From an uncultured bacterium (GTDB taxonomy: Bacteria; Auribacterota; Erginobacteria; Erginobacterales; Erginobacteraceae), in the NCBI GenBank assembly GCA_964465735.1, contig CAYXKT010000003.1, forward strand, positions 1-50,312: 50,312 nucleotides of DNA. The letters are read 5' to 3'. The notes beneath the pieces are model-generated. The model had not been told where the DNA came from, ran no database searches, and worked only from the letters and a program-made list of their open reading frames with translations. The first letter of the stretch is position 1, and every line of letters begins with the position of its first letter. The translations under genes and the position numbers were made by a program. Positions 4,796 through 48,159 of this stretch are shown here, piece after piece.

Positions 4796-4799
4796 CGAC

Positions 4800-19500: not shown

Positions 19501-20076
19501 GCCCGCGTCGGGGGCGTCCGGGAGCGTTCCGGGGGTGACGCGGAAGTATGAACTGTCAATTACCGGCCGGGTCAGGGTCGGGTCAGTCAGGGTTTTATTG
19601 GTGATGATCTGGACATCGGTCACCCCGACAAAGGCGCTCTCCGGACTCTCCAGACCGTCAAGAAGGTCGGCGTTGACCGCGAAGGGGACGGTGAGGATCT
19701 CCTGGACGGGGGCGAGAGTCTCAAAGTAGGTCCCGTCAGTGGAGAAGGCCACCTGGAGGTAATAACTGTCTTGCCCCGTGAAGATTGAAGAAGGGAGATC
19801 AGCAGTGTCTCGGCCGAGGATGACGTTGTAGATACCTTCTACGCAAGTGGTTTCGGCATTTTCCGGACCCCAGTAAACATTGGTCATCGCCTCGTCACCG
19901 ATCCAGAACTTAAATGTCGAGTCTCCGGAATAACCGATATCACCTTCCTCGATTCGGCCCTGAAAGTTGATAGCCGGTTTGTCGTAGGGGTGGGGGAGAT
20001 TCTGACCCCAGGCGGGCAAGGCGATGAGTGCGACCAAGGTCGCGGTGAGAATAATCGGGAAGCTCGAAATTTTCAT
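10582..20076 (-). CDS. Giant (~3,160 aa) secreted surface fibre/adhesin-like protein with phage-tail-fibre-like repeat modules
   Basis: The track ORF is 10582..20103. The preferred start is the ATG at 20076, with GGAGG 6 nt upstream (cctcc at 20083..20087), giving [25 protein letters not shown]. Recurrent motifs are xMYYxGxxWxxLxG, [41 protein letters not shown] and (V/L)GIGTxxPxxxLxVxG, all typical of tail-fibre or Chlorovirus-glycoprotein-repeat-like proteins. It contains large internal repeats, listed separately. Confidence 0.85.
13511..15041. repeat. Copy A of a perfect 1,531-bp direct repeat inside the giant gene
   Basis: Matches 16463..17993 at an offset of exactly 2,952 bp (984 codons, in frame). 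The boundaries were read base by base, with the first mismatch at 15042/17994, and similarity with 2 mismatches continues to 15079/18031. The nested track ORFs 13910..14101, 14121..14549, 14255..14455, 14302..14496 and 14624..14842 have translations identical to their +2952 partners. Confidence 0.9.
16463..17993. repeat. Copy B of the perfect 1,531-bp direct repeat inside the giant gene
   Basis: See copy A. The repeat encodes ~510 identical residues (…[27 protein letters not shown] ... [19 protein letters not shown]). Confidence 0.9.
18004..19059. repeat. Two diverged in-frame tandem units of 528 bp (176 aa) in the N-terminal part of the giant gene
   Basis: The block [73 protein letters not shown] occurs twice. 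The landmark cataatgct(t/c)cc lies at 19048 and 18520, and the antisense ORFs 18932..19129 and 18404..18601 are offset by 528. Confidence 0.8.
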
Positions 20077-20461
20077 AGTTTTCCTCCGGGTAAAGGAGAA
20101 CATTTAAAGTGTCGTAAAAGAAATGATTATAGACAGATTAACTTACTCTATAACCATAACACAGAGAGAAGATATGTCAATGCGCGCAACTCTATAATAT
20201 TTATTTTTCTTCTCGGGAATAGTTTTTCTTATCTCGAGAGTTACTATAGCATATTCCGTGCCAGCATTAAAATATAATGAGAAAAATTCGAGTATATGGG
20301 TTGACAGGGAGAAAGCTTATGAACAAGAAGCCCTTGGCGGGCAAGATATGTCCCGTTACACGGCAATATATTCTGTGATAGCTGGTACTGTTCGGGTAAA
20401 GTTGAGTTATCCAGAGCTTGGATGATTTATACGGCATCACTTTTCCAACTCGGTGAAAATA

Positions 20462-26979: not shown

Positions 26980-27173
26980 TTGACATCGAACGTTTAGATG
27001 TTACCTAAATTGAGCGATTCTATGCGGCGAACTGCACCAATCTTTTGCGTCCGAACGGATATTGAAAATCCTCGCCATATCTCCTGGATATGGCTGCGGT
27101 TTTCGCAACCCGTCGGCCAGCAAAATCTTAGCACATTTCATCCGCAATAATCGCTCAACTTAGGTGTTAATAT
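26980..27173 (+). promoter_or_regulatory. Putative sigma70-type vapBC promoter split by the MITE insertion
   Basis: TTGACA lies at 26980..26985 and TAATAT at 27168..27173. Removing the MITE and one TSD copy restores TTGACA-16 nt-TAATAT. Confidence 0.4.
27004..27164. mobile_element. 161-bp MITE, copy 1
   Basis: The terminal inverted repeats are cctaaattgagcgatt and aatcgctcaacttagg (16 nt, 1 mismatch). It is flanked by the 5-bp direct duplication TGTTA (26999..27003 and 27165..27169). The interior is an imperfect palindrome with the central hairpin ccatatc-tcct-gg-gatatgg region. It is near-identical to copies 2 and 3. Confidence 0.9.
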
Positions 27174-27220: not shown

Positions 27221-27451
27221 ATGAAAGTTATAACTGTCCGAAGCGTTGCCGATGATACCTATCTGGCGCTCAAGCGCTGGGCGAAGATCAATCGCCGCAG
27301 CCTCCAGGAGCAGGTGAAGTGTATCCTGGAGCGCGAGGTTCAACTGGTCGAGAAAAGCCCCGAACTGCAATGCCGGGACTGGAGAACCCGACTGCGGGAT
27401 CGGGACTGGGGTGATATTACGGCGGATATCCGCCGGGAGCGTGATCGATGA
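27221..27451 (+). CDS. vapB: Ribbon-helix-helix antitoxin (VapB/FitA-like)
   Basis: The start is moved from the track ORF (27164) to the ATG at 27221, which has the RBS aaggagag upstream. The product MKVITVRSVADDTYLALKRWAKINRRSLQEQVKCILEREV has an RHH/Arc-like N-terminus. The stop overlaps the vapC start (ATGA). Confidence 0.75.
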   Translation: MKVITVRSVADDTYLALKRWAKINRRSLQEQVKCILEREVQLVEKSPELQCRDWRTRLRDRDWGDITADIRRERDR

Positions 27452-27852
27452 TCGTGGTCATCGATACTTCGGCTCTGCTTCGGCTATTTATCCCCGATGG
27501 TCCGATACCGGCCGGCCTGACCCGGGCCCTCCGGGAGGCGGAGCGGGGAGAGGGCGCTCTGCTGGCCCCGGAATTAATCCAGCCCGAAGCGGCTCAGGCC
27601 CTGCGCAAGAAACACCGGGAAGGGATTTTGTCCCGGGAGGAGATGGAGGAATTACTGGAGTGTATTCTCTCGCTCCCGATCAAGCTTTTCGGGCACCGGG
27701 CGCTGATCCGGCGAGCCTCCGCGCTGGCCCGGGAAGACAAGCTGACCGTTTATGACTCGCTCTTTCTGGCTCTGGCCGAGGCAAAAAACGCCCGGTTGTT
27801 AACCGCCGATCGCGCTCTGGCAAAAGCGGCGGAAAAACTGGAGTTGTTTTGA
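27448..27852 (+). CDS. vapC: PIN-domain toxin (VapC-like ribonuclease)
   Basis: 134 aa. MIVVIDTSALL carries the first acidic residue, followed by TVYDSLFLALAE and ARLLTADRAL motifs in the typical PIN arrangement. It is coupled to an upstream small antitoxin gene. Confidence 0.8.
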   Translation: MIVVIDTSALLRLFIPDGPIPAGLTRALREAERGEGALLAPELIQPEAAQALRKKHREGILSREEMEELLECILSLPIKLFGHRALIRRASALAREDKLTVYDSLFLALAEAKNARLLTADRALAKAAEKLELF

Positions 27853-28524: not shown

Positions 28525-28685
28525 CCTAAATTGAGCGATTCTATGCGGCGAACTGCACCAATCTTTTGCGTCCGAACGGATATTGAAAATCCTCGCCATA
28601 TCTCCTGGATATGGCTGCGGTTTTCGCAACCCGTCGGCCAGCAAAATCTTAGCACGTTTCATCCGCAATAATCGCTCAACTTAGG
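28525..28685. mobile_element. 161-bp MITE, copy 2
   Basis: It has the same orientation and length as copy 1. It is flanked by the 5-bp duplication TTAAA (28520..28524 and 28686..28690). Confidence 0.9.
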
Positions 28686-31651: not shown

Positions 31652-33378
31652 TGGTTTTTCCTTCTCTCCGGGTTGGGTCTGATCTCTGGAAACGAATCCT
31701 TGGTAATGATCCAGATTGCTTCTTCTCTCTGGAGGGTGAATTTATCCATCTCGCGGGCGGGGAAGAACCATTGGAAATTCCCCTCCATAAAGCGGGCCAT
31801 ATTGCGGTTCCAGCCCGGCGCGGGAATTCGGTCAGGCACCTCGGGCGCGATGTAAAGCCGATTTGCCTGGTTGATCGTCCCCGTGGCCAGCTCCCCGCGG
31901 ATATTATTCAGCATTACCGCCAGAGGCCGCAAGCGCTCTTCTAAGATATCAATCTGCTGATAACCGGCAAGTAGATTAAAGACCAGAACCGGGGTCAGGA
32001 TCAAGGTGATTATTAGTTTTCCCCGAAACCGGGGCTGGATGAGGATGGTGATTACAGCCGGGATGATCAGGGCCAGAAGGGCGTTGGGGATATACTGGTA
32101 GCGGAACTGGGTCAGGGGGTAGAGGGCCCGGTTGGTTGTCAGCCGGGCAGTGGCGACGGTGAAGAAATTGGTCAGATAGAGAAAAAAGCAGAAAGAGAGA
32201 AGCGCGATGAGGCGGCGCTGTCTTTTCCGGATTAGCCACCAGGCCCCCAGGAGCAAAAGGAAGAGAATCGCTCCTCCGGAAAAGGTCGCGACGGCCTCCA
32301 ATCGGTTGCCCAGAGAGAGGAGCCAGCCACCCAGATTCATATTGTCATCGAAAAAAACCGGTCGGGCAAGTTGGGGCCAGAGGGCGACCGCGACTCCGTT
32401 GTAAGCCAGGTTGAAAAAGACCAGGAGCACCCCTGCTCCCAGCTCTCCGGCGCTGGGAGCGGGCAGGGCCCCGGTCGACCCCCGGTGAAGCGCCCAGACC
32501 CCCAGGTAAAGAATATAAATCAGCAGTATAGCGGTGTCTCTCCATTGGAAGTATGGCCGGGGTGGGACAGCGAGGGTGAAGGGGAGGATGAAGATCGCCA
32601 CCGGCCAGAGCGCAAAAACCTCGGAAGTGAACATCCCGAGAAGAAAGAGGGCCCCGACCGGCAGCAGGAGGATCGTTCGCCGGTTCCTGAGATAGCCGAT
32701 ATAGATAATGTACCCGAGGAGGAAAGAGCAGAAACCGAGGATGATGAAGAGCTGGAAGGTCCAGGTCAGGATATCGGAGTGGGAATAGTGAAAGGCGAAG
32801 ACGGCTAAAAAGATGGCGGTCAGGGTCCGGCCGAGCGAGAGTCGGACCGCCAGCAGGTAGAGCAGCAGGATGCTCAGGCAGTAGCCGGCGAAATTGGTGA
32901 TATGGTTCCAGGTAAAGTCGGGGCTGAAAAGATGATGCTGAAGGTAGGGGACAAGGTGGGAGAGGGGACGGTAGGTCCCGTGTTTCCAGAGATCGAATGT
33001 CAGGACACCCTGCCAGGCCGGGGGCGGTGAGGAGGATTCCAACTGTTGGAAGACATAGAAGGCCGACCAGTAATCGCTTCGGGGTGGATTATAAAAGGTC
33101 GGCCGGTAAAGGAGAAAGAGTCCGGCGAAGAGAAGACAGAAGAAGGCCGTCATTTTCCCAGGCGTCCAGATCTTTCCCCGGAATTTCTTTTGGGGACGGT
33201 TGTTCGGGATCGGAGCGGGCATAGTGCCAGGATAATAACAGGAGGAAAAATCAACGGCAAACAAATTAGGGCGGATTATAATTGAAAAGCCGGATGGATT
33301 CGTGTAATTTATTCTTTTCCTGTGATTGATTGTCAAGGGGCGGCCGGGGTTGATCTTCCGGATTGCCTCCCAATCCAT
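31648..33378 (-). CDS. Polytopic membrane protein, GT-C/ArnT-like fold suspected
   Basis: 576-aa ORF with at least 11 hydrophobic segments. Its stop overlaps the epimerase start (ATGA). The start is ambiguous: an internal ATG at 33222 (MPAPIPNNRPQKKF...) would avoid overlap with the divergent transketolase gene. Confidence 0.6.
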   Translation of the reverse strand: MDWEAIRKINPGRPLTINHRKRINYTNPSGFSIIIRPNLFAVDFSSCYYPGTMPAPIPNNRPQKKFRGKIWTPGKMTAFFCLLFAGLFLLYRPTFYNPPRSDYWSAFYVFQQLESSSPPPAWQGVLTFDLWKHGTYRPLSHLVPYLQHHLFSPDFTWNHITNFAGYCLSILLLYLLAVRLSLGRTLTAIFLAVFAFHYSHSDILTWTFQLFIILGFCSFLLGYIIYIGYLRNRRTILLLPVGALFLLGMFTSEVFALWPVAIFILPFTLAVPPRPYFQWRDTAILLIYILYLGVWALHRGSTGALPAPSAGELGAGVLLVFFNLAYNGVAVALWPQLARPVFFDDNMNLGGWLLSLGNRLEAVATFSGGAILFLLLLGAWWLIRKRQRRLIALLSFCFFLYLTNFFTVATARLTTNRALYPLTQFRYQYIPNALLALIIPAVITILIQPRFRGKLIITLILTPVLVFNLLAGYQQIDILEERLRPLAVMLNNIRGELATGTINQANRLYIAPEVPDRIPAPGWNRNMARFMEGNFQWFFPAREMDKFTLQREEAIWIITKDSFPEIRPNPERRKNQ

Positions 33379-34191
33379 AAATCAGCGAGCTTGAAAAGCG
33401 TGAATACAGAGAAGATCAGCCGGGAGATCAGGCAGCGACTGGTGCGGATGCACCAGAAAGGGTCTCACTTCGGCTCGGCGATGTCGATTGTTGATATCCT
33501 GACTGTACTCTACTTCCGCGTGATGAATATTGACTCTCCGGACGACCCCGGCCGAGACCGGTTCATTCTCTCCAAAGGTCACGCCGCCTCCGCCTGGTAC
33601 GCCACTTTGGCTCGGAAAGGATTTTTCGATGAGAAACTTCTCGATACCTATCTCAAAGACGGCGGCCAGCTCTACGGCCATCCGGTTCGCTGCGGAGTCC
33701 CCGGGGTGGAGGCTTCGACCGGTTCGCTCGGCCACGGGATCAATATTGGATCCGGGATGGCTCTGGCCGGGAAGAACGATGGGAAAGATTATCGGGTTTA
33801 TGTTCTGATGGGGGATGGGGAGATCCAGGAGGGCAGTGTCTGGGAGGGGGCGATCCTGGCCGCCCGGCTGAAACTCGATAACCTGGTGGTGATCGTCGAT
33901 GCCAACAACCTCCAGGGTTTCGACCGGGTGGAGAATATCCAGCCGATCCGGACCTTCAAGAAAAAGTGGGAGGCCTTCGAGTGGGGGGCGCGTGAGGTGG
34001 ATGGCCACGATCACGACCAACTGGAGAGGGCTTTGCGCGAGGCACCCTTCGTCCCCGGCGCACCCTCGGTGGTGATCGCCCGGACGACCAAGTGCAAGGG
34101 AGTGAAGGAGATGGAGGATTGTTTTGAGTCCCACTATCTCTCGGTGCCGAAGGATAAGGTAGAGTGTTACTGCCGGGGACTGGAGGAGTGA
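33322..34191 (+). CDS. Transketolase, N-terminal (thiamine-diphosphate-binding) subunit
   Basis: GSHFGSAMSIVDILTVLYF, ILSKGHAASAWYA, GSLGHGINIGSGMALA and VLMGDGEIQEGSVWE are classic transketolase N-terminal motifs. The track start at 33322 is a GTG. TTG 33391 or GTG 33400 are more likely starts judging by the usual N-terminal length. Confidence 0.85.
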   Translation: MIDCQGAAGVDLPDCLPIHKSASLKSVNTEKISREIRQRLVRMHQKGSHFGSAMSIVDILTVLYFRVMNIDSPDDPGRDRFILSKGHAASAWYATLARKGFFDEKLLDTYLKDGGQLYGHPVRCGVPGVEASTGSLGHGINIGSGMALAGKNDGKDYRVYVLMGDGEIQEGSVWEGAILAARLKLDNLVVIVDANNLQGFDRVENIQPIRTFKKKWEAFEWGAREVDGHDHDQLERALREAPFVPGAPSVVIARTTKCKGVKEMEDCFESHYLSVPKDKVECYCRGLEE

Positions 34192-34193
34192 GA

Positions 34194-34307
34194 GTAATCG
34201 GTAACCAGTGGACCAGGTACCGATTACCGATTACTGATCACCGATTACCGATCACCGATTACTGATTACTGATTACTGATTACTGATTACCGAATACTGG
34301 TTACCGA
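34194..34307. repeat. Heptamer tandem array (Y)GATTAC x12 with inverted units at its 5' side
   Basis: Twelve contiguous 7-mers fill 34221..34304 (cgattac, tgattac, variants tgatcac/cgaatac/tggttac). They are preceded by the inverted units gtaatcg gtaacca. The array fills the whole spacer between the two transketolase subunit genes. Confidence 0.9.
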
Positions 34308-34308
34308 A

Positions 34309-35241
34309 ATGAGACAGGCATTCATAAACACACTGATGGAGTTGGCCGAACGGGACGACTCCATCTATCTCCTGACCGGGGACGCCGGTTTTACGATCCT
34401 GGAGCGGTTCCGGGACCGCTTCCCGGGTCGTTACTACAACGTGGGGATCGCCGAGGCGGCGATGATCGGCCTGGCCGCCGGGTTGGCGATGTCCGGGAAG
34501 ACCGTCTTTGTCTATTCGATCGTCCCCTTCGTCACGATGCGCTGCTTTGAGCAGGTCCGAATCGACCTCTGCTATCAGAACCTTCCGGTCAAGCTGGTCG
34601 GGGTGGGGCAGGGAGTCACCTACGGGACCGCCGGGGCCACCCACCACGCCATCGAGGATATCGCCGTGATGCGGGCCTTGCCCAATATGACCGTGATCTG
34701 CCCGGGGGGGCCGATCGAGACCAAAAAAGCCGTTGCCGCCTCTCTCGATCTTACCGGCCCCTGCTATATCCGACTGGGGAAGTCCGGCGAACCGACAGTC
34801 CACAAGAGTGAGGATATCGATTTCGCGATCGGTCGGGGGATCAGGGTTCGGAAAGGGGAGGGGGTAGCCCTGGTCGCCACCAGCAATATGGTCCCGACCG
34901 CGGTCGCCACCGCCGAATTACTGGAGAAGGAAGGCTGGAAGCCGGAAGTAATCAGTATGCATACGGTAAAGCCGATCGACCGGGAACTGCTGGCTGAGAC
35001 TGCCCGACGCTGCCCGCTGATCGCCACCCTGGAAGAACACAATCTGATCGGTGGTCTGGGTTCGGCGGTGGCGGAAGTGATCCTGGCGGATAATCTCCAC
35101 GCCCGGTTGATCACCTTCGGGATCCCCGATACTTACGCCCCGGTAGCCGGAAGCCAGGAGTATCTGCGGGAGTTGTTTGGCTTAACACCGTCCCAGATTG
35201 AGGCGGTAATCAGGGGAGAATTAGAGGATAGTAAGCAGTGA
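34309..35241 (+). CDS. Transketolase, C-terminal (pyrimidine-binding plus C-terminal domain) subunit
   Basis: 310 aa. GDAGFTILERF..., GIAEAAMIGLAAGLAMSGK and YGTAGATHHAIEDIAVMRALPNM match the transketolase/DXS pyrimidine-binding domain layout. Confidence 0.85.
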   Translation: MRQAFINTLMELAERDDSIYLLTGDAGFTILERFRDRFPGRYYNVGIAEAAMIGLAAGLAMSGKTVFVYSIVPFVTMRCFEQVRIDLCYQNLPVKLVGVGQGVTYGTAGATHHAIEDIAVMRALPNMTVICPGGPIETKKAVAASLDLTGPCYIRLGKSGEPTVHKSEDIDFAIGRGIRVRKGEGVALVATSNMVPTAVATAELLEKEGWKPEVISMHTVKPIDRELLAETARRCPLIATLEEHNLIGGLGSAVAEVILADNLHARLITFGIPDTYAPVAGSQEYLRELFGLTPSQIEAVIRGELEDSKQ

Positions 35242-35641
35242 ACAGTGAGCAGTAAGGGTCCCGTCCTGATATATGTTGTCACTGATAGAGTACTTCCCCC
35301 CGGGGTTTATCCCCGGGGAATGAAAGTTCCATAAGCTAATCAAAATAAAAAAAACTAAAACGGCCCCGGCCGGTTTGCCTGTCCGCCGTAGCTTTAGCGT
35401 AGGTGGATCCGGCAGGGGAGAAAGTTCTGAGTTGCTCTGATGTGATAGCTATGAACTGATTCACCCGCGGCGCAAGGCCGCGGGGGTCTGTTGCGTTTAT
35501 GTCAAACCGGTAGCTTATGAACTGATTCACCTACCGGATAAACCGGTAGGGGTCTTAATATGGCAACGTTTCATCTATTAAAAAGTGACAACTTTAAATC
35601 AGGACTGGACACTGGGAAACTGCTAACTGCTCACTGCTTAC
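35231..35641. repeat. 411-bp intergenic foldback element with ~55-nt terminal inverted repeats and three box-plus-hairpin units
   Basis: The left end is gtaagcagtgaacagtgagcagtaagggtcccgtcctgatatatgttgtcac. The reverse complement of the right end is gtaagcagtgagcagttagcag...gtgtccagtcctgatttaaagttgtcac. Internal units lie at 35297..35337 (inverted), 35447..35484 and 35512..35550. Confidence 0.8.
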
Positions 35642-35690
35642 TTTCTCGGGGACCCATAAATACAATCGAACCATCGGATAATCCGCGGAA

Positions 35691-36824
35691 ATGAAACACA
35701 ACCACAAATACCTTGCCCTCCGCCGCTACTGGAACCGGGGACGGACCCTGGCCCATATCCTGGCAATCAAGGCGTTTCGTAAAAAGCGCTATCCCTTCTA
35801 CGTCAACCTGGTCATCAACAGTCGGTGCAACCTGAAGTGCGCCTACTGCTTCGGGAGCTACTCCAACCGGCAGACACCGGACTGGGCTTACGAGGATCTG
35901 GTCAAGTTGATCGACGACCTTTACGACCGGGGGACCAGGTACATTTTGGTCCAGGGCGGGGAACCGATGCTGCATAACGATCTGGGAAAGATATTTCGCT
36001 ATATCGACAGCAAGGGGATCGTCACTGCCCTGGTCACCAATGGCCAGTTCCCCGACCGGATCCGCCAGACCCCGGAGATTGCCCTGCTCGACAACATCTG
36101 CTTTTCCCTCGACGGGAATCGGGAGGGTAACGACCGGGTCCGGGGAAAGGGGACCTTCGACAAGGTTCTGGAATCGATCCAGGTGGTGAAAGAGGTCCAT
36201 AAGACCCCGATTCGGATCAATTCGACCATCACCAAGTACACGGTTGATGATGTTGATTTTATGGCCGAGTTTATGCGGAAGAATAACATCGAGTGGGGGA
36301 TCAACTTTCTCTTTAAGGGGGACGAGCGGTTGGGGGAAGAGGACCTGGCCCCGGACGATGCCGCGATTGTCCGCTACCAGGAGAAGTTCATCGATTACAT
36401 CAAGCGCGGCTACCCGATCTTCTCCACCACCAAGATCCTCCGTTACACATTAAGCTGGCCGGTGCCCTATTCGAGAAAGTTTCTCGGCAAGGAAGAATCG
36501 CTGCGACTGCTGGGGAAGAAGGCGATCGAGTGTCAGTATGGCAACTACGAGATCGTGATTGACGAGGATGGCCGACTCTATCCCTGCCAGGGGATGCAGG
36601 GGATGTTCGACGGAAAGAATCTCAAGGAAGTCGGTTTCGATGAGGCTTTTAAGCATCTGGAGACCAAGCCTTGCTATACCTGTTACCTGGTCTCAATGAT
36701 CAACACCTCGGCGATGATCAACTGGGACCTGAACGTGATCGGGGAGACGGTGGCCGGGACCTTCCGGAGCCGGCTACTGAAAAAAACAAAAGCGGGAGTA
36801 CCAAAAGCGGGAGTGATTGAGTGA
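35691..36824 (+). CDS. Radical SAM enzyme with SPASM/twitch-like C-terminal Cys motif (paralog group, rSAM-1)
   Basis: 377 aa with CNLKCAYC (CxxxCxxC), GGEPMLH, VTNG and SLDGNREGNDRVRGKGTF. The C-terminal part reads CQYGNYEIVIDEDGRLYPCQ...CYTCY. Confidence 0.85.
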   Translation: MKHNHKYLALRRYWNRGRTLAHILAIKAFRKKRYPFYVNLVINSRCNLKCAYCFGSYSNRQTPDWAYEDLVKLIDDLYDRGTRYILVQGGEPMLHNDLGKIFRYIDSKGIVTALVTNGQFPDRIRQTPEIALLDNICFSLDGNREGNDRVRGKGTFDKVLESIQVVKEVHKTPIRINSTITKYTVDDVDFMAEFMRKNNIEWGINFLFKGDERLGEEDLAPDDAAIVRYQEKFIDYIKRGYPIFSTTKILRYTLSWPVPYSRKFLGKEESLRLLGKKAIECQYGNYEIVIDEDGRLYPCQGMQGMFDGKNLKEVGFDEAFKHLETKPCYTCYLVSMINTSAMINWDLNVIGETVAGTFRSRLLKKTKAGVPKAGVIE

Positions 36825-36896
36825 TGGAGTGATGGAGTGATGGAGTGATGGAGTGGTGGTGATTAACCCAGTACTCCATTTCTCCAATACTCCAGG
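36811..36896. repeat. Octamer array GAGTGATG x6 plus inverted partner forming a hairpin
   Basis: The array at 36811..36858 reads gagtgatt gagtgatg x4 gagtggtg and overlaps the last codons and the TGA stop (36822..36824) of rSAM-1. The partner cagtactccatttctccaatactcca lies at 36869..36896. Confidence 0.85.
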
Positions 36897-36927
36897 TCAA
36901 GAGAACGCTTAATAATGGTCACCTGAT

Positions 36928-37752
36928 ATGGTCGCTCAAGCCGACAACGTCGACCTCTCCATCATTATGCCCGCTCTCAACGAGGAGGAAAATATCGCCT
37001 CCGCGATTGAGCATACGCTGGCCGCCTTTTCCGCTCACGATTTGAATGGTGAGATTATCGTGGTCAATGACGGCTCCACTGATCGCACCCCGCAGCTTGT
37101 TGAAGAGATTGCCGGGCGAGACGGAAGGGGAAATATCCGGATGGTCCACCATCGAACTCCCCAGGGTTTGGGAGTGGCATTTCGCGATGGTGTGAAGGAA
37201 GCGGCAGGCAAGGTGGTCGCTTTTATGCCCGGCGACGACGAGAATGACCCGGGGGAGATTATGCGTTACTTCTGGCTGCTCACCCAGGTGGATATGGTGG
37301 TCCCCTTTGTCTATAACAAGGAAGTTCGGCCGAAGATCCGGACCTGGATCTCCAAAGTATTTCGGATGATCGTCAACGTCAGCTTCGCGGTCAACTTCAA
37401 CTATACCAATGGCACCGTTCTCTATCGCCGGGAAATCTTGGCCAGCGCTCTCAACCGCTCCGCCGGATTCTTTTTTCAGACCGAGAACGTGGTGAGGGCG
37501 GTCTGGAGCGGCTACCTCTTCGCCGAGGTGCCCTACCGGTTGGCGGTCCGCGCCGGTGGGGAGTCAAAGGCCATCTCCTTGAAGTCGTTGAGCCAGGTGA
37601 TGGGCGACTACCTGGCCCTGGTCCGGGAGATTTATTTCTCCCCGGAGAAAAAAGCCGGGCGGCAACCTGTCCCCGGCACTGTCTCCGAAATCCGTCGCCA
37701 CGAGACCATCCAGAGCGGCCTCGCCAAACCGGGTAAATACAGCCGGGAATAA
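36928..37752 (+). CDS. Family-2 glycosyltransferase, polyprenyl-phosphate sugar synthase type (DPM1/ArnC/GtrB-like)
   Basis: 274 aa with LSIIMPALNEEENI, IIVVNDGSTDRT, a FMPGDDENDP acidic motif, and length and layout typical of the family. Confidence 0.8.
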   Translation: MVAQADNVDLSIIMPALNEEENIASAIEHTLAAFSAHDLNGEIIVVNDGSTDRTPQLVEEIAGRDGRGNIRMVHHRTPQGLGVAFRDGVKEAAGKVVAFMPGDDENDPGEIMRYFWLLTQVDMVVPFVYNKEVRPKIRTWISKVFRMIVNVSFAVNFNYTNGTVLYRREILASALNRSAGFFFQTENVVRAVWSGYLFAEVPYRLAVRAGGESKAISLKSLSQVMGDYLALVREIYFSPEKKAGRQPVPGTVSEIRRHETIQSGLAKPGKYSRE

Positions 37753-37833
37753 TTACGGGATAACCGGATAGTTTTTTTAGACAAGATAACAGGATCTCCA
37801 GGATGAAGCTTCTAAAGGGATGCTTTATCTAAA

Positions 37834-37994
37834 CCTAAATTGAGCGATTCTATGCGGCGAACTGCACCAATCTTTTGAGTCCGAACGGATATTGAAAATC
37901 CTCGCCATATCTCCTGGATATGGCTGCGGTTTTCGCAACCCGTCGGCCAGCAAAATCTTAGCACGTTTCATCCGCAATAATCGCTCAAATTAGG
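37834..37994. mobile_element. 161-bp MITE, copy 3
   Basis: It has the same orientation and length as copies 1 and 2. It is flanked by the 5-bp duplication CTAAA (37829..37833 and 37995..37999). Confidence 0.9.
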
Positions 37995-38017
37995 CTAAAG
38001 GTTATTTTCGTTGATTG

Positions 38018-38403
38018 ATGAAATACGAGGAGTTGACGAAAAAAGTTATTGGATGTGCTTACCGGGTATATAACCGGATGGGATTCGGGTTTTTGTAAAG
38101 TGTCTATGAAAGATGTTTAGCATTGGAATTAAGAAACCCGGGATACAATTCGAGGAGCAGAAAAAAATCGAGGTATTTTATGGTGGGGAATTGGTGGGAG
38201 ATCTCGTGGCTGACCTCGTCATTGCAGATGCTGTAATTGTTGAATTAAAATCCGCTCGAACCATCAGTAAGGCTCACGAAGTCCAGTTAGTCAACTATCC
38301 GGCAGCAAGGTAAAAGTCGGTAGGACTACTTGTCAACTTTGCGGAAAACGAAGTCCAAATTAAAAAAAAGTTAAAAGATCCTCAGCCAAGACCTATTCCA
38401 TAA
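38018..38403 (+). pseudogene. GxxExxY-family (PD-(D/E)XK-like) small protein gene, inactivated
   Basis: The frame reads MKYEELTKKVIGCAYRVYNRMGFGFL-TAA-SVYERCLALEL. The TAA at 38096..38098 replaces the E of the eponymous GxxExxY motif. A 1-nt frameshift in the cccggg run (38137..38142) leads to ...GIQFEEQKKIEVFYGGELVGDLVADLVIADAVIVELKSA...QLVNY. A second in-frame TAA (38311..38313) precedes ...VGLLVNF. The track ORF 38113..38313 is the middle fragment. Confidence 0.75.
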
Positions 38404-38507
38404 ATTTAGGCTTGCGATCCCATTACCATCCATTCTGCAATACCCTAAACAACAATCCAGCAAATCCTGTTATCCCGTCTAAAATCAACCCAGAAGATCT
38501 CATCAAA

Positions 38508-39629
38508 ATGGAAAAAGAGAAGAGTCAAAAACTGGTCCTCGATGGACACAAGCTGGCCTGGCATAAGGATCGGGTGGAAGCCTGGCTGGCCGGGGAGCGG
38601 ATCGCCCCGATCACCATCGACTGTGCCCTGACCCGGCGCTGTACTTACAGCTGCGTCTACTGCTACAGCAAGCTCCAGATTCACGACGAGCAGAAGATGA
38701 CCCGGGACGTCATCTTCCGCTTCCTTGACGATGCCGCCGAGATCGGGGTCAAGGCAGTCAGTCTCGTCTCAGACGGAGAGTCAACCTGCTCCCCCCATCT
38801 CGAGGACGCGATCGTCAGAGGGAAGGCCAATGGGTTGGATATGGCCCTGGGGACCAACGGCTACCTGCTGAAGCTCGAACGGCTGGAGGAGATCCTCCCC
38901 GCCCTGACCTATCTCCGTTTTAACATCTCCGCCGGGGAGCGGGACGCTTACGCGAAAGTGATGGGCTGCCAACCGGAGGCCTACGACCGGGTCTTGAAGA
39001 TCGTCCGAGAGTGTGTCCGGATCAAGCGGGAGAAGGGGTTGGCTGTAACTATCGGCCTGCAGATGGTCCTCCTCCCCGAGTTCGCCGATCAGGTTGTCCC
39101 TCTATCCAAATTGGGGAAGGAACTGGGCGTCGATTACACCGTGATCAAACATTGCTCCGATGATGAACTTCACACCCTGGGGGTCGATTACTCAAAGTAT
39201 TTTAGTTTGGGCGATATTCTCCAAGAGGCCGAGAGTTATTCCACCGGAGATTATCTGGTTAAGGCCAAGTGGTCGAAGATTATGTCCGGTGGGGAACGCA
39301 AGTACTCCCGCTGTTATGGGGCTCCCTTTATGCCTCAGTTCTCCGGTTCCGGCCTGGTCGCCCCCTGCGGGATGCTCTTCAACAGTCGCTACCAGGATAA
39401 GTTCCACATCGGGAGTATCATCGACACCCCCTTCAAGGAGATCTGGCAGAGCGACCGTTACTGGGAGGTGATGGATCTTCTTGCCTCGGATAAATTCGAT
39501 GCCCGCACCGACTGCGCCTGCCTCTGTCTCCAGCACAAGATCAATGAATATCTCTGGGATCTGAAGGAGGGAGTTATCGCCTTGGGCGAACCCTCGGGAG
39601 AACCCCCGGATCACATTAATTTCATTTAA
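38508..39629 (+). CDS. Radical SAM enzyme, distinct family with Cys-rich C-terminus (rSAM-2)
   Basis: The track ORF starts at 38412. The preferred ATG is at 38508 (MEKEKSQKLVLDGHKLAWHKDRVEAWLAGERIAPITIDCALTRRCTYSCVYC). The CxxxCxxC motif is present. The C-terminal cysteines read RCYGAPF...APCGMLF...DCACLCLQHK. Confidence 0.8.
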   Translation: MEKEKSQKLVLDGHKLAWHKDRVEAWLAGERIAPITIDCALTRRCTYSCVYCYSKLQIHDEQKMTRDVIFRFLDDAAEIGVKAVSLVSDGESTCSPHLEDAIVRGKANGLDMALGTNGYLLKLERLEEILPALTYLRFNISAGERDAYAKVMGCQPEAYDRVLKIVRECVRIKREKGLAVTIGLQMVLLPEFADQVVPLSKLGKELGVDYTVIKHCSDDELHTLGVDYSKYFSLGDILQEAESYSTGDYLVKAKWSKIMSGGERKYSRCYGAPFMPQFSGSGLVAPCGMLFNSRYQDKFHIGSIIDTPFKEIWQSDRYWEVMDLLASDKFDARTDCACLCLQHKINEYLWDLKEGVIALGEPSGEPPDHINFI

Positions 39630-39638
39630 ACACAGTAT

Positions 39639-40120
39639 TCGGTAATCGGTGATGTATGTCAAAAGCTAAAGGGATTTGCGCGTTTATCGGATCTCCCAAC
39701 AGCTGGCCAGGGATATTTTTGAACTGATTAAGGATTATCCGAAAGAAGAGAAATATTCGCTTACGTCTCAAGTCCGCCGGTCCTCCCGTTCTATTGGGGC
39801 CCAAATCGCCGAGGCTTGGGCCAAGCGGTGATACCCGGCGCATTTTATCCGCCAGCTGACCGATTCCGATGGCGAGCAGCAGGAAACCCGGCATTGGATA
39901 GATGTCTCGCTGGATGGCGGGTATATAAATATAGACCAGCATCGGCCGTTGATGGATCAGTGTCGGGGCACAGGAAGAATGATCAGCGTTATGATAAGCA
40001 AATCCCCCCAGTTTTGCGGGAAGTCCGTGAAGGAAGATAGCGCCTGGTATCAGATCGAGGAAATTGAAGAGAGTTGATCCCCAGTTAAACCCAGCGAAGA
40101 TCCTGTTCACCGATTACCGA
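39639..40120. other. Inverted-repeat-bracketed spacer cassette carrying a four-helix-bundle pseudogene
   Basis: tcggtaatcggtga (39639..39652) and tcaccgattaccga (40107..40120) form a perfect 14-nt inverted repeat. Both arms are made of the GATTACC heptamer motif. Confidence 0.75.
39652..40077 (+). pseudogene. Four-helix-bundle protein gene (23S rRNA intervening-sequence protein family), inactivated
   Basis: The frame reads MYVKS-TAA(39667..39669)-RDLRVYRISQQLARDIFELIKDYPKEEKYSLTSQVRRSSRSIGAQIAEAWAKR-TGA(39829..39831)-YPAHFIRQLTDSDGEQQETRHWIDVSLDGGYI.... The motif pattern fP.eE.y.LtsQ.rRa..SI..NIAEg is typical of the family. Confidence 0.75.
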
Positions 40121-40125
40121 TCACA

Positions 40126-41187
40126 ATGCGCTTAAGTCTCACATATAAACGGGCGAAGATGCTCGCCACTCTCGCCTTCAGCCACCTCCTCTATAAGCGG
40201 CGGCCGCTCAATGTTTACCTGGCGGTCACCAATCGCTGCAACCTTAATTGTTACTATTGCTATGGCGATTACCCGGATCGCCGGAACTGGCGGGAGTTCA
40301 GCACGGAAGAGCTTTTAAAACTCTTTGATGACCTGGCGGCTCGGGGGACCTGTCTCCTCCAGCTTCAGGGGGGGGAACCGCTTTTGCGCAAGGATATCGG
40401 AGTCTTAATCGATGGGGTCCGGAAAAACGGGATGATCTGCGATATGATCACCAACGGGGTCCTGGTCGAAAAGAAGTTTGACCAGGTGAAGAAACTTGAC
40501 TCCATCTGTATCAGTCTTGATGGGAGAAAGGAGCTCAACGACCGGAATCGGGGAGAGGGGACCTTCGAGCCGATTATGCGGGCGATCGAACTTTGCACTG
40601 CCAACAAGATCGCCACTCGGATCAACGCCGTCCTCACCGACCAGACCGAGCCGGAAGATCTGCGGTTTCTCGCCGAGACAGCGGAGCGGACCGGGTCTCT
40701 TCTGAATTTCTCCCTTTCCTTCCAGTATGAATCCCTGAAAGAGGCAGGACCCGCTCACCATCTTGATATTACCGATGAACAGGTTCGCAATCTTATAAAC
40801 CAGATTATCCAACTCCAGTCCGAGGGTTATCCCATCCAGTTCAGCCAGATGGCCCACGACCTCGCCCTTCAGTGGCCGTTTACTTATCAGAAAAGAATGG
40901 CTCGAGCGGAAGAGGTCCCTGCGCATTACCGTTATCCGAAGTGTTTTCATTCGGATTATGTCGTCTTTATCGATGGCGACGGCAGTGTTTATCCCTGCTG
41001 CAACTTCTGGGGGAAACCGAAGTGGAATATCCGGGAAGACGGATTGGACGCCTCTTTGGCCGGCGTGGATCGGGAGGGCTGTGAAGCTTGCTACATTCTC
41101 TCCTATCTCGACCGGAACCTGATCTTCGGGATGCGGCCCCGGACGCTTTGCCATTACGCCGTCCGCGCGTTGAAGGAATTATTGTGA
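40126..41187 (+). CDS. Radical SAM enzyme with SPASM/twitch-like C-terminus (rSAM-3)
   Basis: 353 aa with CNLNCYYC, GGEPLLR, ITNG and SLDGRKELNDRNRGEGTF. The C-terminal part reads CFHSDYVVFIDGDGSVYPCC...CEACY. Confidence 0.85.
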   Translation: MRLSLTYKRAKMLATLAFSHLLYKRRPLNVYLAVTNRCNLNCYYCYGDYPDRRNWREFSTEELLKLFDDLAARGTCLLQLQGGEPLLRKDIGVLIDGVRKNGMICDMITNGVLVEKKFDQVKKLDSICISLDGRKELNDRNRGEGTFEPIMRAIELCTANKIATRINAVLTDQTEPEDLRFLAETAERTGSLLNFSLSFQYESLKEAGPAHHLDITDEQVRNLINQIIQLQSEGYPIQFSQMAHDLALQWPFTYQKRMARAEEVPAHYRYPKCFHSDYVVFIDGDGSVYPCCNFWGKPKWNIREDGLDASLAGVDREGCEACYILSYLDRNLIFGMRPRTLCHYAVRALKELL

Positions 41188-42266
41188 ACCGGGTTCTCCT
41201 CGGTGTCAGGATTGCCTCCTCCCGCTTGCTGGGGAGTAGGATCCCCTTTTTTGTCCAGCTGGTTCCGACCTCGCGGTGCAATCTCAATTGCCGATATTGC
41301 TTTGGAGAGTTTCACGAGCGGGAGGGGGAGCACTTCTCCCTGGAGAAGATCGGGCGGGTTATTGACGGGTTGGCGGGGCTGGGGACCCGGTTCATCCTTC
41401 TCACCGGCGGTGAGCCGATGATGCACCCGGAGATATCGGAGATTATTCGGAAGATCTCTGATCATCGGATCGAAATCATCCTGGGGACCAACGGCCTGCA
41501 GGTAGCGGAGCGGATCGAGGAACTGTCGCCGGTGAAGACGTTCAGTATCAGCCTCGACGGTCCCCGGGAGCATCACGATTACTACCGGGGAGCGGGTTCA
41601 TATGACACGGCGATGAAAGCGATCCAGGCGGCCCGGAACCGGGGGAAGGGTGTGCAGATCCAATTCACGATGACGAAAGACCTGGTGAAATCTTTCGAGT
41701 ATATCCGGTCGGTGGCCGGAGAACTGGGTTGTTTTATCGGGATCAATATTCTCCGGCCTCAGCGGCAGGCTGAAGGGGGGATGAAAAACCCGGATGAATC
41801 AACGGAGCAGGAGATTGATCTTTTTCTTGATTACCTGATCGAAACTCGTCCTCCGGAACTCCCCTATCCGCGTTCCCTGCTGAAGCGGTTGAAATCCTGG
41901 CCCTATGATTATGGCCGGGATGTCATTATCCGCCAGGAGGATCTCCGGGGATACGATGCCATCCGCTGTTCGGCGGGGAGGTTTATGATCGCCATCGACA
42001 ACCGGGGGAACATCTACCCCTGCGCCAAGTGGTTTTATACTCGTCCTCTGGAGAATTGTGGTGACGGGGATATCGCTCGAGCCTGGCGGGATCTGCCGGC
42101 GGTCCAGTGCGCGGCCTGTCTCGACCCGGGCTTCAACCTTCTCAACGATACGCTCAGGTTCAACCCCGCCTCCCTGCTGGGTCTGCTCCGGAATTTTACC
42201 AGGGAAAAGAAAGGAAGAAATAACCAGGAAGGACACGAAGAGGAGACAAAGCAAATGCCGGAGTAA
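41184..42266 (+). CDS. Radical SAM enzyme with SPASM/twitch-like C-terminus (rSAM-4)
   Basis: The track ORF starts at 41088. The preferred GTG at 41184 overlaps the rSAM-3 stop (GTGA). Motifs are CNLNCRYC, GGEPMMH, GTNG and SLDGPREHHDYYRGAGSY. The C-terminal part reads CSAGRFMIAIDNRGNIYPCA...CAACL. Confidence 0.8.
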   Translation: MNRVLLGVRIASSRLLGSRIPFFVQLVPTSRCNLNCRYCFGEFHEREGEHFSLEKIGRVIDGLAGLGTRFILLTGGEPMMHPEISEIIRKISDHRIEIILGTNGLQVAERIEELSPVKTFSISLDGPREHHDYYRGAGSYDTAMKAIQAARNRGKGVQIQFTMTKDLVKSFEYIRSVAGELGCFIGINILRPQRQAEGGMKNPDESTEQEIDLFLDYLIETRPPELPYPRSLLKRLKSWPYDYGRDVIIRQEDLRGYDAIRCSAGRFMIAIDNRGNIYPCAKWFYTRPLENCGDGDIARAWRDLPAVQCAACLDPGFNLLNDTLRFNPASLLGLLRNFTREKKGRNNQEGHEEETKQMPE

Positions 42267-42357
42267 TGTAGTATTGGAGTGATGGAGTAATGAGACTTGA
42301 GCCCGGGTTTAATATGTTCGGTTTCCCAACACTGCAGTACTTTCACACTCCATCATC
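42261..42357. repeat. Octamer array GAGTRATG x4 plus distal inverted partner
   Basis: The array gagtaatg tagtattg gagtgatg gagtaatg (42261..42292) overlaps the TAA stop of rSAM-4 (42264..42266). The partner cactccatcatcc lies at 42345..42357. Confidence 0.75.
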
Positions 42358-42374
42358 CGGAAAGTCTTTATATT

Positions 42375-43685
42375 ATGCCCTATCCCAGGTTTAAAATCAG
42401 TATGCCGCTGGGGGAAGTAGCCCGCTCCCTGCTCAGTCTTTTCAGGCGGGGGGACCCTCAGGATCCGGAGAATTTCGCGGAGGCGTTCCGGCGGTTCGGC
42501 GGCTATGACCAGGTGCTCCTGACCGGTTCAGGCCGGGCCGGTTTTCGCCTGTTTTTGGAATGCGCCGGTTTCCCACCCGGATCTGAGATCATTTTTCCCG
42601 CCTATACATTTCACGTGATGCCGGCGGTGGCCGCCGAGTGCGGACTGCGGCCGGTCTTCGCCGATGTTGACCCTGCGACCTGGAACATTTCGCCGGAGTC
42701 GATCCGGGCGCGGCTTACCGAGCGGACCCGGGCGATTGTTCCCACCCATCTCTTTGGTGTCCCCGCCCCGATGGAGGAGATCTCTGCCATCGCCGGCGAG
42801 AGGGGTCTGATGGTGATCGCGGATTGCGCCCACGCCCTGGGGGCTCGTTATCGGGGAAAACCGGTGGGAACAATCGGCGACGCCGCTCTTTTTACCTTTG
42901 CGATGAGTAAGAATCTGCCCTGTTGGGGGGGAGGAGCTGTGGTTACTTGTGACCGCGCTCTGGCGGAGCGGATGCGGGAACGGATTGAAAGCAGTAATCT
43001 CCTTTCGGCCGCGGTGATCATCCGCCGACAGCTTTCCAATCTTCCCGGCATTCTCGGCACCCAATCCGCGATCTTTCCCTGGACGCTCTACCCGGCGCTG
43101 AGGGTCGCGGATTACCTGGAGAGCGATTTCTTTGATCGGCCGTTTGTTGAAGCAGTGACCGGTAATCAGTTATCGGTAGTCGATGATCGGTCCTTGGGGG
43201 ACGGGGCAGCCGCGGCCGGCCAGAAATCCCGGGTGGCCGGGATTTCGCCCTTTCAGGCCGCCGTGGGTCTGCGCCAGCTTAATCGTTTACCTAACTGGCT
43301 GGAAAGGCAGGCCGTCAACGCTCGCTATCTCCGCGGGCGGTTGGAAGTCTGTCCCGGCCTCCAGCTCCAGAAAGAACCGTCGGGCACCCGGTCCTCGTTT
43401 CTCTATGTCCGGGCCCGGGCCGAGGAGCCGGACCGGATCCGGAAGCGATTGCTCCGGCGAGGGATCGACACCAAGCCGGACGATATGCGCGACTGTTCCG
43501 CACTGAGCATCTTTCCTCCCGGTCCGCCCTGCCCGGTGGCCGGGAGTTTGGGGGAGCGCTGTATCGAACTGCCCTGCAGTCCGTTCTATTCCCAGCGGCA
43601 GATGAAGAGAATCGCCGATCGAATTCTCCTCGCCCTCTCCTCAGCGCGGACGGTTAACGATCCGGACCACCGGCCGGTTAAATGA
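42375..43685 (+). CDS. DegT/DnrJ/EryC1/StrS-family PLP-dependent sugar aminotransferase
   Basis: The track ORF starts at 42297. The preferred ATG is at 42375 (MPYPRFKISMPLG). Motifs are LLTGSGRAGFRLFLE, PAYTFHVMPAVAAECG, VPTHLFGVPAPMEEI, ADCAHALGARYRGKPVG and FTFAMSKNL (candidate PLP lysine). Confidence 0.8.
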   Translation: MPYPRFKISMPLGEVARSLLSLFRRGDPQDPENFAEAFRRFGGYDQVLLTGSGRAGFRLFLECAGFPPGSEIIFPAYTFHVMPAVAAECGLRPVFADVDPATWNISPESIRARLTERTRAIVPTHLFGVPAPMEEISAIAGERGLMVIADCAHALGARYRGKPVGTIGDAALFTFAMSKNLPCWGGGAVVTCDRALAERMRERIESSNLLSAAVIIRRQLSNLPGILGTQSAIFPWTLYPALRVADYLESDFFDRPFVEAVTGNQLSVVDDRSLGDGAAAAGQKSRVAGISPFQAAVGLRQLNRLPNWLERQAVNARYLRGRLEVCPGLQLQKEPSGTRSSFLYVRARAEEPDRIRKRLLRRGIDTKPDDMRDCSALSIFPPGPPCPVAGSLGERCIELPCSPFYSQRQMKRIADRILLALSSARTVNDPDHRPVK

Positions 43686-47902: not shown

Positions 47903-48011
47903 TTCGGGTCAGCGGTTTTCAGATAAGCCCCGGAATGCCATTGCAACTCCAAAATAGTGAAGCAATCTATTTTTATTCAGAATAACATCTTAACCGGAAC
48001 GCTGAGATTAC

Positions 48012-48159
48012 TTAGTGTCTGAACGAAAACCTCAAGTCACATAGAATCTGTCATTGCGAGGAACGAAGTGACGAAGCAATCTCATCACAAAACAAACAGA
48101 TTGCTTCGTCGTCCCTCCTCGCAATGACCTGGTTTTTGGGGTTTCCGTTCAGACACTAA
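48012..48159. repeat. 148-bp nested foldback containing a CATTGCGAGG-type hairpin element
   Basis: The outer inverted repeat is ttagtgtctgaacgaaaacc (48012..48031) with ggtttccgttcagacactaa (48140..48159), 1 mismatch. The inner repeat is gtcattgcgagg (48050..48061) with cctcgcaatgac (48117..48128), and gacgaagcaatct pairs with agattgcttcgtc. It may act as an intergenic terminator. Confidence 0.8.

Follow-up and report, generated by a model that had tools for sequence, protein, structure and literature searches.

The DNA analysed here, referred to as the window, is a stretch of 50,312 nucleotides (nt) of contig CAYXKT010000003.1 (assembly GCA_964465735.1) from an uncultured bacterium of the Erginobacteraceae, phylum Auribacterota. 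Both spacers under study lie in a plus-strand gene cluster (33322 to ~50183) which we read as a sugar-modification operon, its products being a split transketolase, five radical-SAM/SPASM proteins, a GT2 glycosyltransferase, a DegT-type aminotransferase and a B12-radical-SAM protein. Each spacer contains one small broken gene between inverted repeats: a GxxExxY pseudogene in spacer 1, and in spacer 2 a pseudogene of the four-helix-bundle family of proteins from 23S ribosomal RNA (rRNA) intervening sequences (IVSs). An initial annotation, made by reading the window without database searches, had proposed that these are IVS-like cassettes, that is, mobile insertions whose stems are cut by RNase III within a polycistronic mRNA. 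Drawing on ~90 related loci, we found that stem-plus-gene spacers are a widespread cassette type and not a chance feature, and that the two spacers of the window very probably represent degenerate copies within a genuine, conserved family of hairpin cassettes which is homologous in design to the IVSs.

Two pseudogenes between inverted arms

When its stops were scored as X and its frameshift was repaired, the open reading frame (ORF) in spacer 1 matched the GxxExxY profiles TIGR04256 (7e-37, 126.3 bits; cut-off 35) and PF13366 (1.5e-36, 125.8 bits; cut-off 22). A TAA at 38096-38098 takes the place of the motif Glu (GFL-stop-SVYE, compared to GFLESVYE in relatives), one nucleotide is deleted from an A-run at ~38131-38134 (TTAAG, compared to TTAAAG in the related locus L004) and a second TAA lies at 38311-38313. 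As neither the motif nor an open frame is kept, this is a pseudogene of the family and not a functional member. The ORF in spacer 2, its stops likewise masked, matched TIGR02436 (four-helix-bundle/23S_rRNA_IVP; 1.3e-25, 89.8 bits; cut-off 24) and PF05635 (2.3e-28, 98.9 bits; cut-off 33.8), and a profile built from this copy and its relatives matched 2GSC, the S23p pentamer, at 3e-22, and 2RLD at 6e-16. It has no frameshift; a TAA at 39667-39669 replaces a Tyr (MYVKSYRDL in relatives) and a TGA at 39829-39831 replaces an Arg (AKRRYPAHF in relatives). All the lesions listed in the initial annotation for the two genes were found, and what it gave for relatives at the TGA (Arg or Lys) was right, the residue being Arg.

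Two contigs from independent assemblies of other samples and sequencing runs cover the same lesions. Relative to the window, L001 (SRR11702770) has 8 single-nucleotide polymorphisms (SNPs) and L002 (SRR11702754) has 5, with no insertions or deletions, and every lesion is shared, meaning that both four-helix-bundle stops interrupt the ORF in three assemblies. The genes upstream of the two spacers also end in TAA (37750-37752 and 39627-39629). The four-helix-bundle sequence of the window is the most divergent of its clade, with 66-70% identity to the copies in L007 and L083 (77% between these two); this fits relaxed constraint.

The inverted repeats reported in the initial annotation were also confirmed, with pairing at 25 of 30 positions in spacer 1 (37775-37804 with 38455-38484) and at 14 of 14 in spacer 2 (39639-39652 with 40107-40120). 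Spacer 1 has an extra left copy, 37755-37769, which pairs with 38464-38478 at 14 of 15 positions. In neither spacer did any of 3000 mononucleotide shuffles of the flanks reach the observed inverted-repeat score. When the RNA of each complete spacer was folded with its flanks, a check suggested at the outset, both stems formed in the minimum-free-energy structure, and arm-loop-arm constructs gave z = -6.0 for spacer 1 and z = -4.9 for spacer 2. In spacer 2 the 14-nt arms consist of two units of a heptamer which is repeated 13 times in the array at 34218-34307. Coordinates of all these features are given in Table 1.

Spacer 1 also holds a miniature inverted-repeat transposable element (MITE) of 161 nt. 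It has 16-nt terminal inverted repeats (CCTAAATTGAGCGATT / AATCGCTCAAATTAGG) and is flanked by a 5-bp target-site duplication, CTAAA, at 37829-37833 and 37995-37999. Further copies, ~98% identical, lie at 27004-27164 (TGTTA duplication) and 28525-28685 (TTAAA duplication), and the corresponding site in L004 is uninterrupted. With its terminal repeats, copy-specific duplications, three near-identical copies and lack of an ORF, this is a true MITE. Among the related loci that we fetched it was found only in contig L001, which overlaps the window. L001 and L002 both begin inside spacer 1, L001 inside the MITE, as would be expected if repeats there break assemblies. The features now added to the initial annotation are the MITE, the heptamer identity of the spacer-2 arms and at least four further hairpin spacers.

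Table 1 Features of the two cassette spacers and of other hairpin-forming spacers in the window
Feature	Position	Strand	Description
Spacer 1	37753-38507	+	Between the GT2 gene and a radical-SAM/SPASM gene
GxxExxY cassette, left arm region	37755-37804	+	Contains the 16-nt terminal motif twice, in degenerate form: ACGGGATAACCGGAT (37755-37769) and GACAAGATAACAGGAT (37780-37795)
161-nt MITE	37834-37994		Within the GxxExxY cassette, between left arm and gene
GxxExxY pseudogene (PD-(D/E)XK, PDDEXK_3)	38018-38403	+	ATG 38018; natural stop 38401-38403
GxxExxY cassette, right arm	38455-38484	+	Holds the terminal motif in reverse complement, as ATCCTGTTATCCCGTC
Spacer 2	39630-40125	+	Between the radical-SAM/SPASM gene downstream of spacer 1 and the next radical-SAM gene (ATG 40126)
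Four-helix-bundle cassette, left arm	39639-39652	+	Two heptamer units (TCGGTAATCGGTGA); overlaps the A of the gene's ATG
Four-helix-bundle pseudogene (23S rRNA IVS protein / S23p / Avd-like)	39652-40077	+	ATG 39652; natural stop 40075-40077
Four-helix-bundle cassette, right arm	40107-40123	+	TCACCGATTACCGATCA; stops 2 nt short of the next radical-SAM ATG
Gene-less hairpin	34198-34307	+	Short left arm (GTAATCGGTAACCAGTG) against a 13-unit (TACCGAT)n array; z = -4.2
Third bracketed spacer	35232-35645	+	Arms 35232-35258 (CAGTGAG-type heptamers) and 35618-35645; z = -7.0
Gene-less hairpin	36810-36894	+	(GGAGTGAT)x6, loop, (AGTACTCC/AATACTCC)x3; z = -5.4
Weak inverted pair	42260-42357	+	(GGAGTAAT)x4 with CACACTCCATCATCC; z = -1.8, not significant
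Hairpin in a minus-strand operon spacer	~4735-4810	-	(CAGTAAG/CAGTGAG)n, loop, CTGCTGACTGCTAAC

The bracket across both gene families

We examined whether genes of the two families generally lie between inverted arms, taking a flank-to-flank inverted score of ≥ 14 as the criterion for a bracket. Of 161 ORFs in the window and ten relatives, 14 reached this score, and 5 of these were cassette genes. When cassette instances were counted separately (Auribacterota loci and window), all 11 of 11 reached it, compared to 9 of 156 other ORFs. A metagenome scan with a four-helix-bundle alignment gave 80 loci, among them 60 independent ones with enough flank for testing. The locus's own flanks, compared as inverted repeats, scored ≥ 14 in 46 of the 60, compared to 6 of 60 when the same flanks were taken as direct repeats and 37 of 180 when a left flank was set against the right flank of another locus. 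The arms of these loci are arrays of 7-8-nt units (CAGTGAT, CGGTAAT, CAGACGA, CGGAGGA and others), and the unit varies by locus, yet the two arms of one locus remain complementary.

Most of the metagenomic four-helix-bundle ORFs were intact (53 of 60), with ~4 containing premature stops. Neighbouring genes were co-oriented with the ORF in 39 of 45 cases upstream and 38 of 49 downstream, with median gaps of ~80 nt; the cassettes are mostly co-directional with their neighbours. The ORFs of the relatives are under purifying selection: the ratio of non-synonymous to synonymous substitution rates (dN/dS) of intact relatives was 0.04-0.1 where dS was measurable, and otherwise dS was saturated with low dN. 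It should be noted that dS was saturated in most four-helix-bundle pairs, and that the values of the window GxxExxY copy were left out. Intact copies, which the initial annotation had named as something to look for in the assembly, are present in operon spacers between inverted arms in relatives, both in Auribacterota and in other phyla.

GxxExxY homologues were fetched from four further lineages. A 16-nt arm, GACAGGATAACAGGAT, is common to the GxxExxY genes of Auribacterota, Dehalococcoidia, Desulfobacteraceae and one unassigned contig, in plus orientation upstream of the gene and in minus orientation downstream of it. In 1.6 Mb of fetched loci this arm (≤ 2 mismatches) was found beside GxxExxY genes only, with one exception at 2 mismatches. 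The arm of this subfamily is the octamer pair GACAGGAT-AACAGGAT, and in a second GxxExxY subfamily (WOR-3, Nitrospirae and Deltaproteobacteria) GATTACACAGATTA / TAATCTGTGTAATC abut the start and stop codons. The PD-(D/E)XK residues Glu27, Asp66 and Glu76-x-Lys78 were kept in most GxxExxY relatives, as read from the alignment and sequences. No relative was found among viral contigs scanned with the GxxExxY alignment.

Some further features of GxxExxY cassettes were observed. The intact gene of L004 (9528-9902) has Ala at the presumed catalytic Asp66. In a Desulfobacteraceae contig (L172, 1090-2000) the cassette is present in tandem, the first copy having both arms without a gene and the second being intact. 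Some arm copies read ACGGGATAACAGGAT (window 37755-37795 and 38464-38479; arms in L004, L005, L163 and L164); within this, GGGATAACAGG is a sequence which we take to be common to a conserved segment of domain V of 23S rRNA and the I-SceI homing site. The resemblance was spotted post hoc, its chance probability was estimated at roughly 0.01, and the cross-phylum arm consensus has A at the first G, leaving a match to GGGATAACAGG of only 10 nt.

Filling of the two spacers in homologous operons

A search with the central radical-SAM protein found the same operon in metagenome-assembled genomes of the PVC group. The nearest homologous operon was that of Ca. Erginobacter occultus (94% identity), with Ca. 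Euphemobacter frigidus at 85%, and a GxxExxY homologue belonging to the same group carries the label Candidatus Auribacterota in its source. Comparison with homologous operons had been put forward as a check in the initial annotation, and the filling of both spacers does vary among them. Spacer 1 holds an intact GxxExxY gene in L004, L005 and L163; in L003, the closest relative, it holds what appears by eye to be a RelE/ParE-like toxin-antitoxin pair (5790-6585), in L007 inverted octamer arrays without a gene and in L008 tandem repeats without a cassette gene, and in L006 and L011 it is likewise without a cassette gene. Spacer 2 holds an intact four-helix-bundle gene in L004, L007 and L011, an intact GxxExxY gene in L164 (where spacer 1 is outside the coverage) and a GxxExxY fragment in L008; it is gene-free with abutting inverted heptamer arrays in L006, gene-free and 57 nt long in L005, and ~22 nt long in L003 and L163. 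In L009 and L010 both spacers are short and without a cassette gene. In every filled spacer of the homologous operons the gene lies between inverted arms.

Sequence identity changes across spacer 2. The upstream radical-SAM protein is 92% (L004) and 90% (L005) identical to that of the window, the downstream radical-SAM protein 71% and the product of the gene after that ~50%; this drop indicates that spacer 2 is a recombination junction between operon modules. Such a junction would also account for the four-helix-bundle protein of L004 being only 54% identical to that of the window, compared to 70% for L007.

It was also observed that spacer 1 seems to gather small selfish modules, if the toxin-antitoxin pair of L003 is set beside the GxxExxY cassette of the window. 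The tandem repeats in spacer 1 of L008 (8610-8860; Ca. Euphemobacter frigidus) are six ~37-nt hairpin-containing units (GCGGACCTTCAGGTCCGCCAAGTCATTTTCGTAGTC).

Other hairpins and signals in the operon

Inverted arrays are also found in other spacers of the window (Table 1). The arms of the third bracketed spacer enclose ~360 nt of structured, apparently non-coding cargo (35259-35617), for which six-frame translation gave no recognisable protein remnant and Rfam gave no match. Among the related loci, only L006 has any of it, namely a stretch of 50 nt towards the 3' end, in its homologous spacer. This cargo contains several GC-rich hairpins and two copies of TAGCTATGAACTGATTCACC ~60 nt apart.

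A consensus scan of 33000-43000 found no plus-strand promoter. Over the same interval no terminator-like match on the plus strand in the spacers was convincing, and the number of such matches was not above that in shuffles. The neighbours of the cassettes that were scanned with profiles included no transposase, integrase or reverse transcriptase.

Comparison with known elements

The closest known counterpart is the S23p-bearing 23S IVS. In Coxiella this is a 428-nt element in helix 45, in which a 28-bp stem of terminal inverted repeats has the S23p ORF in its loop. The heptamer GACAGAT is present as three tandem copies upstream of this decaying ORF, which is not translated, and RNase III makes its 5' cut at the first copy (Warrier et al. 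2016, PMC4990558). RNase III excision at the stem is established for the IVSs of Coxiella, Leptospira and Salmonella (PMC4990558). The window cassettes share with the IVSs of Coxiella and Leptospira terminal inverted repeats which form a stem around the element, and the PF05635 ORF lies in the loop in sense to the host transcript, being on the operon strand. The 5'-side heptamer of Coxiella resembles the cassette units CAGACGA / GACAGAG and ACAGGAT. Likewise, the ORF tends to decay while the stem stays, and a sporadic distribution suggests horizontal transfer. Unlike the IVSs, both cassettes are situated in an mRNA operon, with protein-coding genes on either side, and not within a 23S or 16S rRNA helix, the same design has a second type of cargo (GxxExxY), and the arms of many relatives are longer, with multiple units. 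RNase III excision has been demonstrated for the rRNA IVSs, and would apply to the cassettes by analogy only.

Short-repeat site pairs have been described in Geobacter metallireducens, in which 53 (24 + 21 + 8) inverted pairs of tandem octa- or heptanucleotide sites lie in spacers and were interpreted as binding sites for IHF/HU or for an unknown global regulator (Aklujkar et al. 2009, PMC2700814). As in these classes 1-3, the arrays here form opposite-strand pairs between co-oriented genes, with a variable distance between partners. The Geobacter sites, with 3-5 tandem units of 7-9 nt (GTTGCTYN, TCTCCGTS(Y) and MTYCTGA), resemble the gene-less hairpins of the window. Unlike for the cassettes, that study has no link to four-helix-bundle proteins, GxxExxY or IVSs (PMC2700814). 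TAACTGA direct repeats of Beggiatoaceae, cyanobacteria and Bacteroidetes end just before start codons (MacGregor 2015, PMC4679880); these had one inverted case in 170 sets (PMC4679880), whereas the window arrays are inverted pairs around a gene or loop. The two have in common spacer-confined 7-nt units, often ending 1-2 nt before a start codon, and a patchy distribution across phyla, and the window unit TTACTGA is one base off TAACTGA. The cyanobacterial short tandemly repeated repetitive (STRR) heptamers are comparable to the TAACTGA repeats.

MITEs and the repetitive extragenic palindromic and bacterial interspersed mosaic elements (REP/BIME) are also intergenic palindromes which fold in mRNA. 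Unlike these, the cassettes carry an ORF, lack target-site duplications and have arms made of short-unit arrays, the GxxExxY 16-mer excepted. Integron cassettes (attC) share with them a small promoter-less ORF, an imperfect inverted repeat, expression from an upstream promoter and variable content at a fixed site; in contrast to a single 3' attC, the repeats here lie on both sides of the ORF. Close to the cassette spacers, the profile-scanned neighbours included neither an integrase nor an attI. The Avd protein of diversity-generating retroelements (DGRs) belongs to the same four-helix-bundle fold family, with weak matches to bAvd PF22296 (8e-7) and NF033474. We rejected a DGR Avd because these scores were below the cut-offs (NF033474 29.8 bits against 80; PF22296 30 against 40) and the scanned neighbours included no reverse transcriptase; template and variable repeats were not looked for.

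A literature search with the 16-nt arm and the family names, covering open-access papers and preprints, found no account of the cassette architecture, of a link between such repeats and these genes, or of IVS-like cassettes in mRNA operons.

Interpretation

We propose that the two spacers hold decaying copies of small, apparently promoter-less gene cassettes which would live in transcribed spacers. A cassette would comprise one small ORF, either S23p/Avd-like four-helix-bundle or GxxExxY PD-(D/E)XK nuclease-like, within inverted arms of short tandem units, those of the four-helix-bundle type being 7-8 nt long and of the form CRGTRAK. In the polycistronic RNA the arms would pair and loop out the ORF, and the resulting stem, by analogy with the rRNA IVSs, may be a substrate for RNase III. 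A cut would part the upstream cistrons from the downstream ones, with the cassette RNA being released or inactivated, and it is this cutting that would make an insertion tolerable inside an rRNA or an operon.

We put the probability of the whole explanation, cassette family and inferred mechanism together, at roughly 0.55. By the same analogy, RNase III may cut the stems of intact family members in mRNA, at somewhat less than even odds, and it is improbable that it would still cut the two eroded stems of the window. Both window ORFs are dead and their arms are eroded, and the cassettes are best seen as relics; any role still left to them would thus be as an RNA stem, in processing, stability or insulation, and possibly there is none.

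Several observations weigh against this explanation. At gathering thresholds Rfam had no match in the whole window, and hence no rRNA was detected there and no Rfam family was identified. None of the 80 metagenomic loci had any of five hand-written 23S motifs; the copies inside 23S rRNA for which the initial annotation recommended a search were thus not found among them. The arms showed no strand-specific RNA signature, as G-U mismatches on the sense strand did not significantly exceed A-C mismatches (86 vs 67, p = 0.15), and it could thus be at the level of the DNA, or through concerted evolution, that the pairing is maintained. That the 16-nt arm is perfect across phyla suggests sequence-specific recognition, as by a protein, over a mere stem. 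The window arms are the lowest-scoring of the Auribacterota copies (17.5 and 14, compared to 19-38), consistent with joint decay of gene and stem, and the perfect stem of the spacer-2 cassette is only 14 bp. Gene-less hairpins made from short tandem repeats are found in most spacers of the operon, and short-repeat arrays flank some ordinary genes in relatives. The bracket is consequently not specific to the cassettes, and the primary role of the arrays may be unrelated to the cassette genes. The comparison of L163 and L003 with the window gave no target-site duplication, direct repeat or precise empty site at the cassette borders. Taking 39649-40101 out of the window sequence gives the ~22-nt spacer of these two loci, in which a single unit of each arm is left, a filled-versus-empty pattern which suggests deletion in the L003 and L163 lineages and not insertion in the window.

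Two parts of the initial annotation are accordingly retained with restrictions. The IVS-like stem-plus-ORF architecture within an mRNA stands in that the design is conserved in both families and matches the Coxiella IVS, and has to be qualified in that the bracket also occurs without cassettes. For mobile insertion, the varying occupancy between homologous operons is in favour, while the lack of target-site duplications and the apparent deletion in relatives are not.

The alternative with the most in its favour is that the bracket is incidental: the arrays would be a general spacer feature with a role of their own, perhaps as sites where an abundant protein binds the DNA or RNA, or as translation leaders before start codons, and the pseudogenes would merely lie between opposite arrays, without processing and without forming a unit. 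The gene-less inverted arrays of relatives and of at least four further spacers in the window agree with this, as do the nine ordinary ORFs of the relatives which also lie between inverted arrays and the interpretation of the Geobacter metallireducens pairs as regulator sites (PMC2700814). Arrays also end 1-2 nt before start codons, as TAACTGA repeats do (PMC4679880): the array of the 34198-34307 hairpin stops 1 nt before the ATG at 34309, and the spacer-2 right arm ends at 40123 ahead of the ATG at 40126. The link to the two gene families is nevertheless far stronger (11/11 vs 9/156) and persists in unrelated contexts and phyla. Arm type also tracks the gene family, GACAGGATAACAGGAT being found only beside GxxExxY genes whether these are in spacer 2 (L008 and L164) or in spacer 1 (window, L004, L005 and L163), and a real rRNA IVS shows the heptamer-plus-stem design. 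We consider an incidental bracket rather unlikely.

A DNA-level mobile element is another, unlikely, explanation. Here the arms would be terminal inverted repeats recognised by a protein, possibly the PD-(D/E)XK nuclease encoded by the GxxExxY gene, and the element would spread by nuclease-initiated recombination or transposition, with the RNA stem as a by-product. This would fit a 16-nt arm which is perfect across phyla though the proteins are only ~60% identical to the window copy, the retention of the PD-(D/E)XK residues in most relatives, the tandem duplication in L172 with one copy gene-free, and the presence of one cassette type in different spacers of related genomes. It would also fit the four-helix-bundle identities (L004 54%, L007 70%), which do not track those of the upstream radical-SAM protein (92% and 85%), and the recombination junction at spacer 2 in L004 and L005 (90-92% upstream, 71% downstream). 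On the other hand, target-site duplications, precise empty sites and transposase, integrase or reverse transcriptase genes among the scanned neighbours were all lacking, a protein of ~125 amino acids is small for a transposase, and the L004 GxxExxY ORF is still intact despite the Ala at the Asp66 position. In addition, the four-helix-bundle arm units vary by locus, which fits a need for pairing better than a fixed binding site.

That the stops are sequencing or assembly errors, or recoded codons in two expressed genes, is in keeping with a four-helix-bundle frame that is intact but for two in-frame stops, but can be ruled out with near certainty, since identical lesions in two independent assemblies 5-8 SNPs from the window are biological and not sequencing errors, TAA as the terminator of neighbouring genes argues against recoding, the GxxExxY copy also has a frameshift, and the window four-helix-bundle copy is the most diverged of its clade.

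A broader form of the cassette explanation, which we regard as speculative and on balance doubtful, would assign both families, as their cargo, to a single, hitherto unrecognised class of hairpin cassettes embedded in transcripts, with the 23S IVSs as its rRNA-resident minority. Such cassettes would colonise any transcribed spacer, be tolerated because RNase III removes or cuts their inverted tandem-repeat arms in the RNA, and punctuate and help to recombine polysaccharide-type operons, and the GxxExxY nuclease would recognise GACAGGATAACAGGAT and thereby provide mobility.

To our knowledge, the S23p/four-helix-bundle and GxxExxY families comprise thousands of annotated proteins with no established function, and the origin and function of rRNA IVSs have been debated for more than 30 years. 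The stem-plus-ORF design, including its tandem heptamers, is common in the mRNA operon spacers of many phyla, so that the rRNA IVS becomes part of a much larger element family. This leads to testable ideas, namely that RNase III cuts at the stems, that the proteins bind their own arms and that the arrays act as junctions for the exchange of operon modules. It likewise provides a way to account for the paired sites of Geobacter, and possibly also the cyanobacterial and Beggiatoaceae heptamers, and, for annotation, it flags a class of spacer which breaks assemblies and harbours pseudogenes.

Further observations in the window

Several other features were observed outside the two spacers. Nested long palindromes lie at 47990-48150, in the spacer before the last gene, and one of them holds GTCATTGCGAGGAACGAAGTGACGAAGCAATCT and its complement; contigs L001 and L002 both end at these palindromes. 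A giant minus-strand ORF of 3173 amino acids extends over 10582-20103, and a 120-nt tandem repeat in three copies (76-80% matches) lies within a minus-strand gene at 5058-5444. Between two of the MITE copies, at 27222-27852, there is a small two-gene pair which by eye seems to encode a ribbon-helix-helix-type antitoxin followed by a PIN/VapC toxin.

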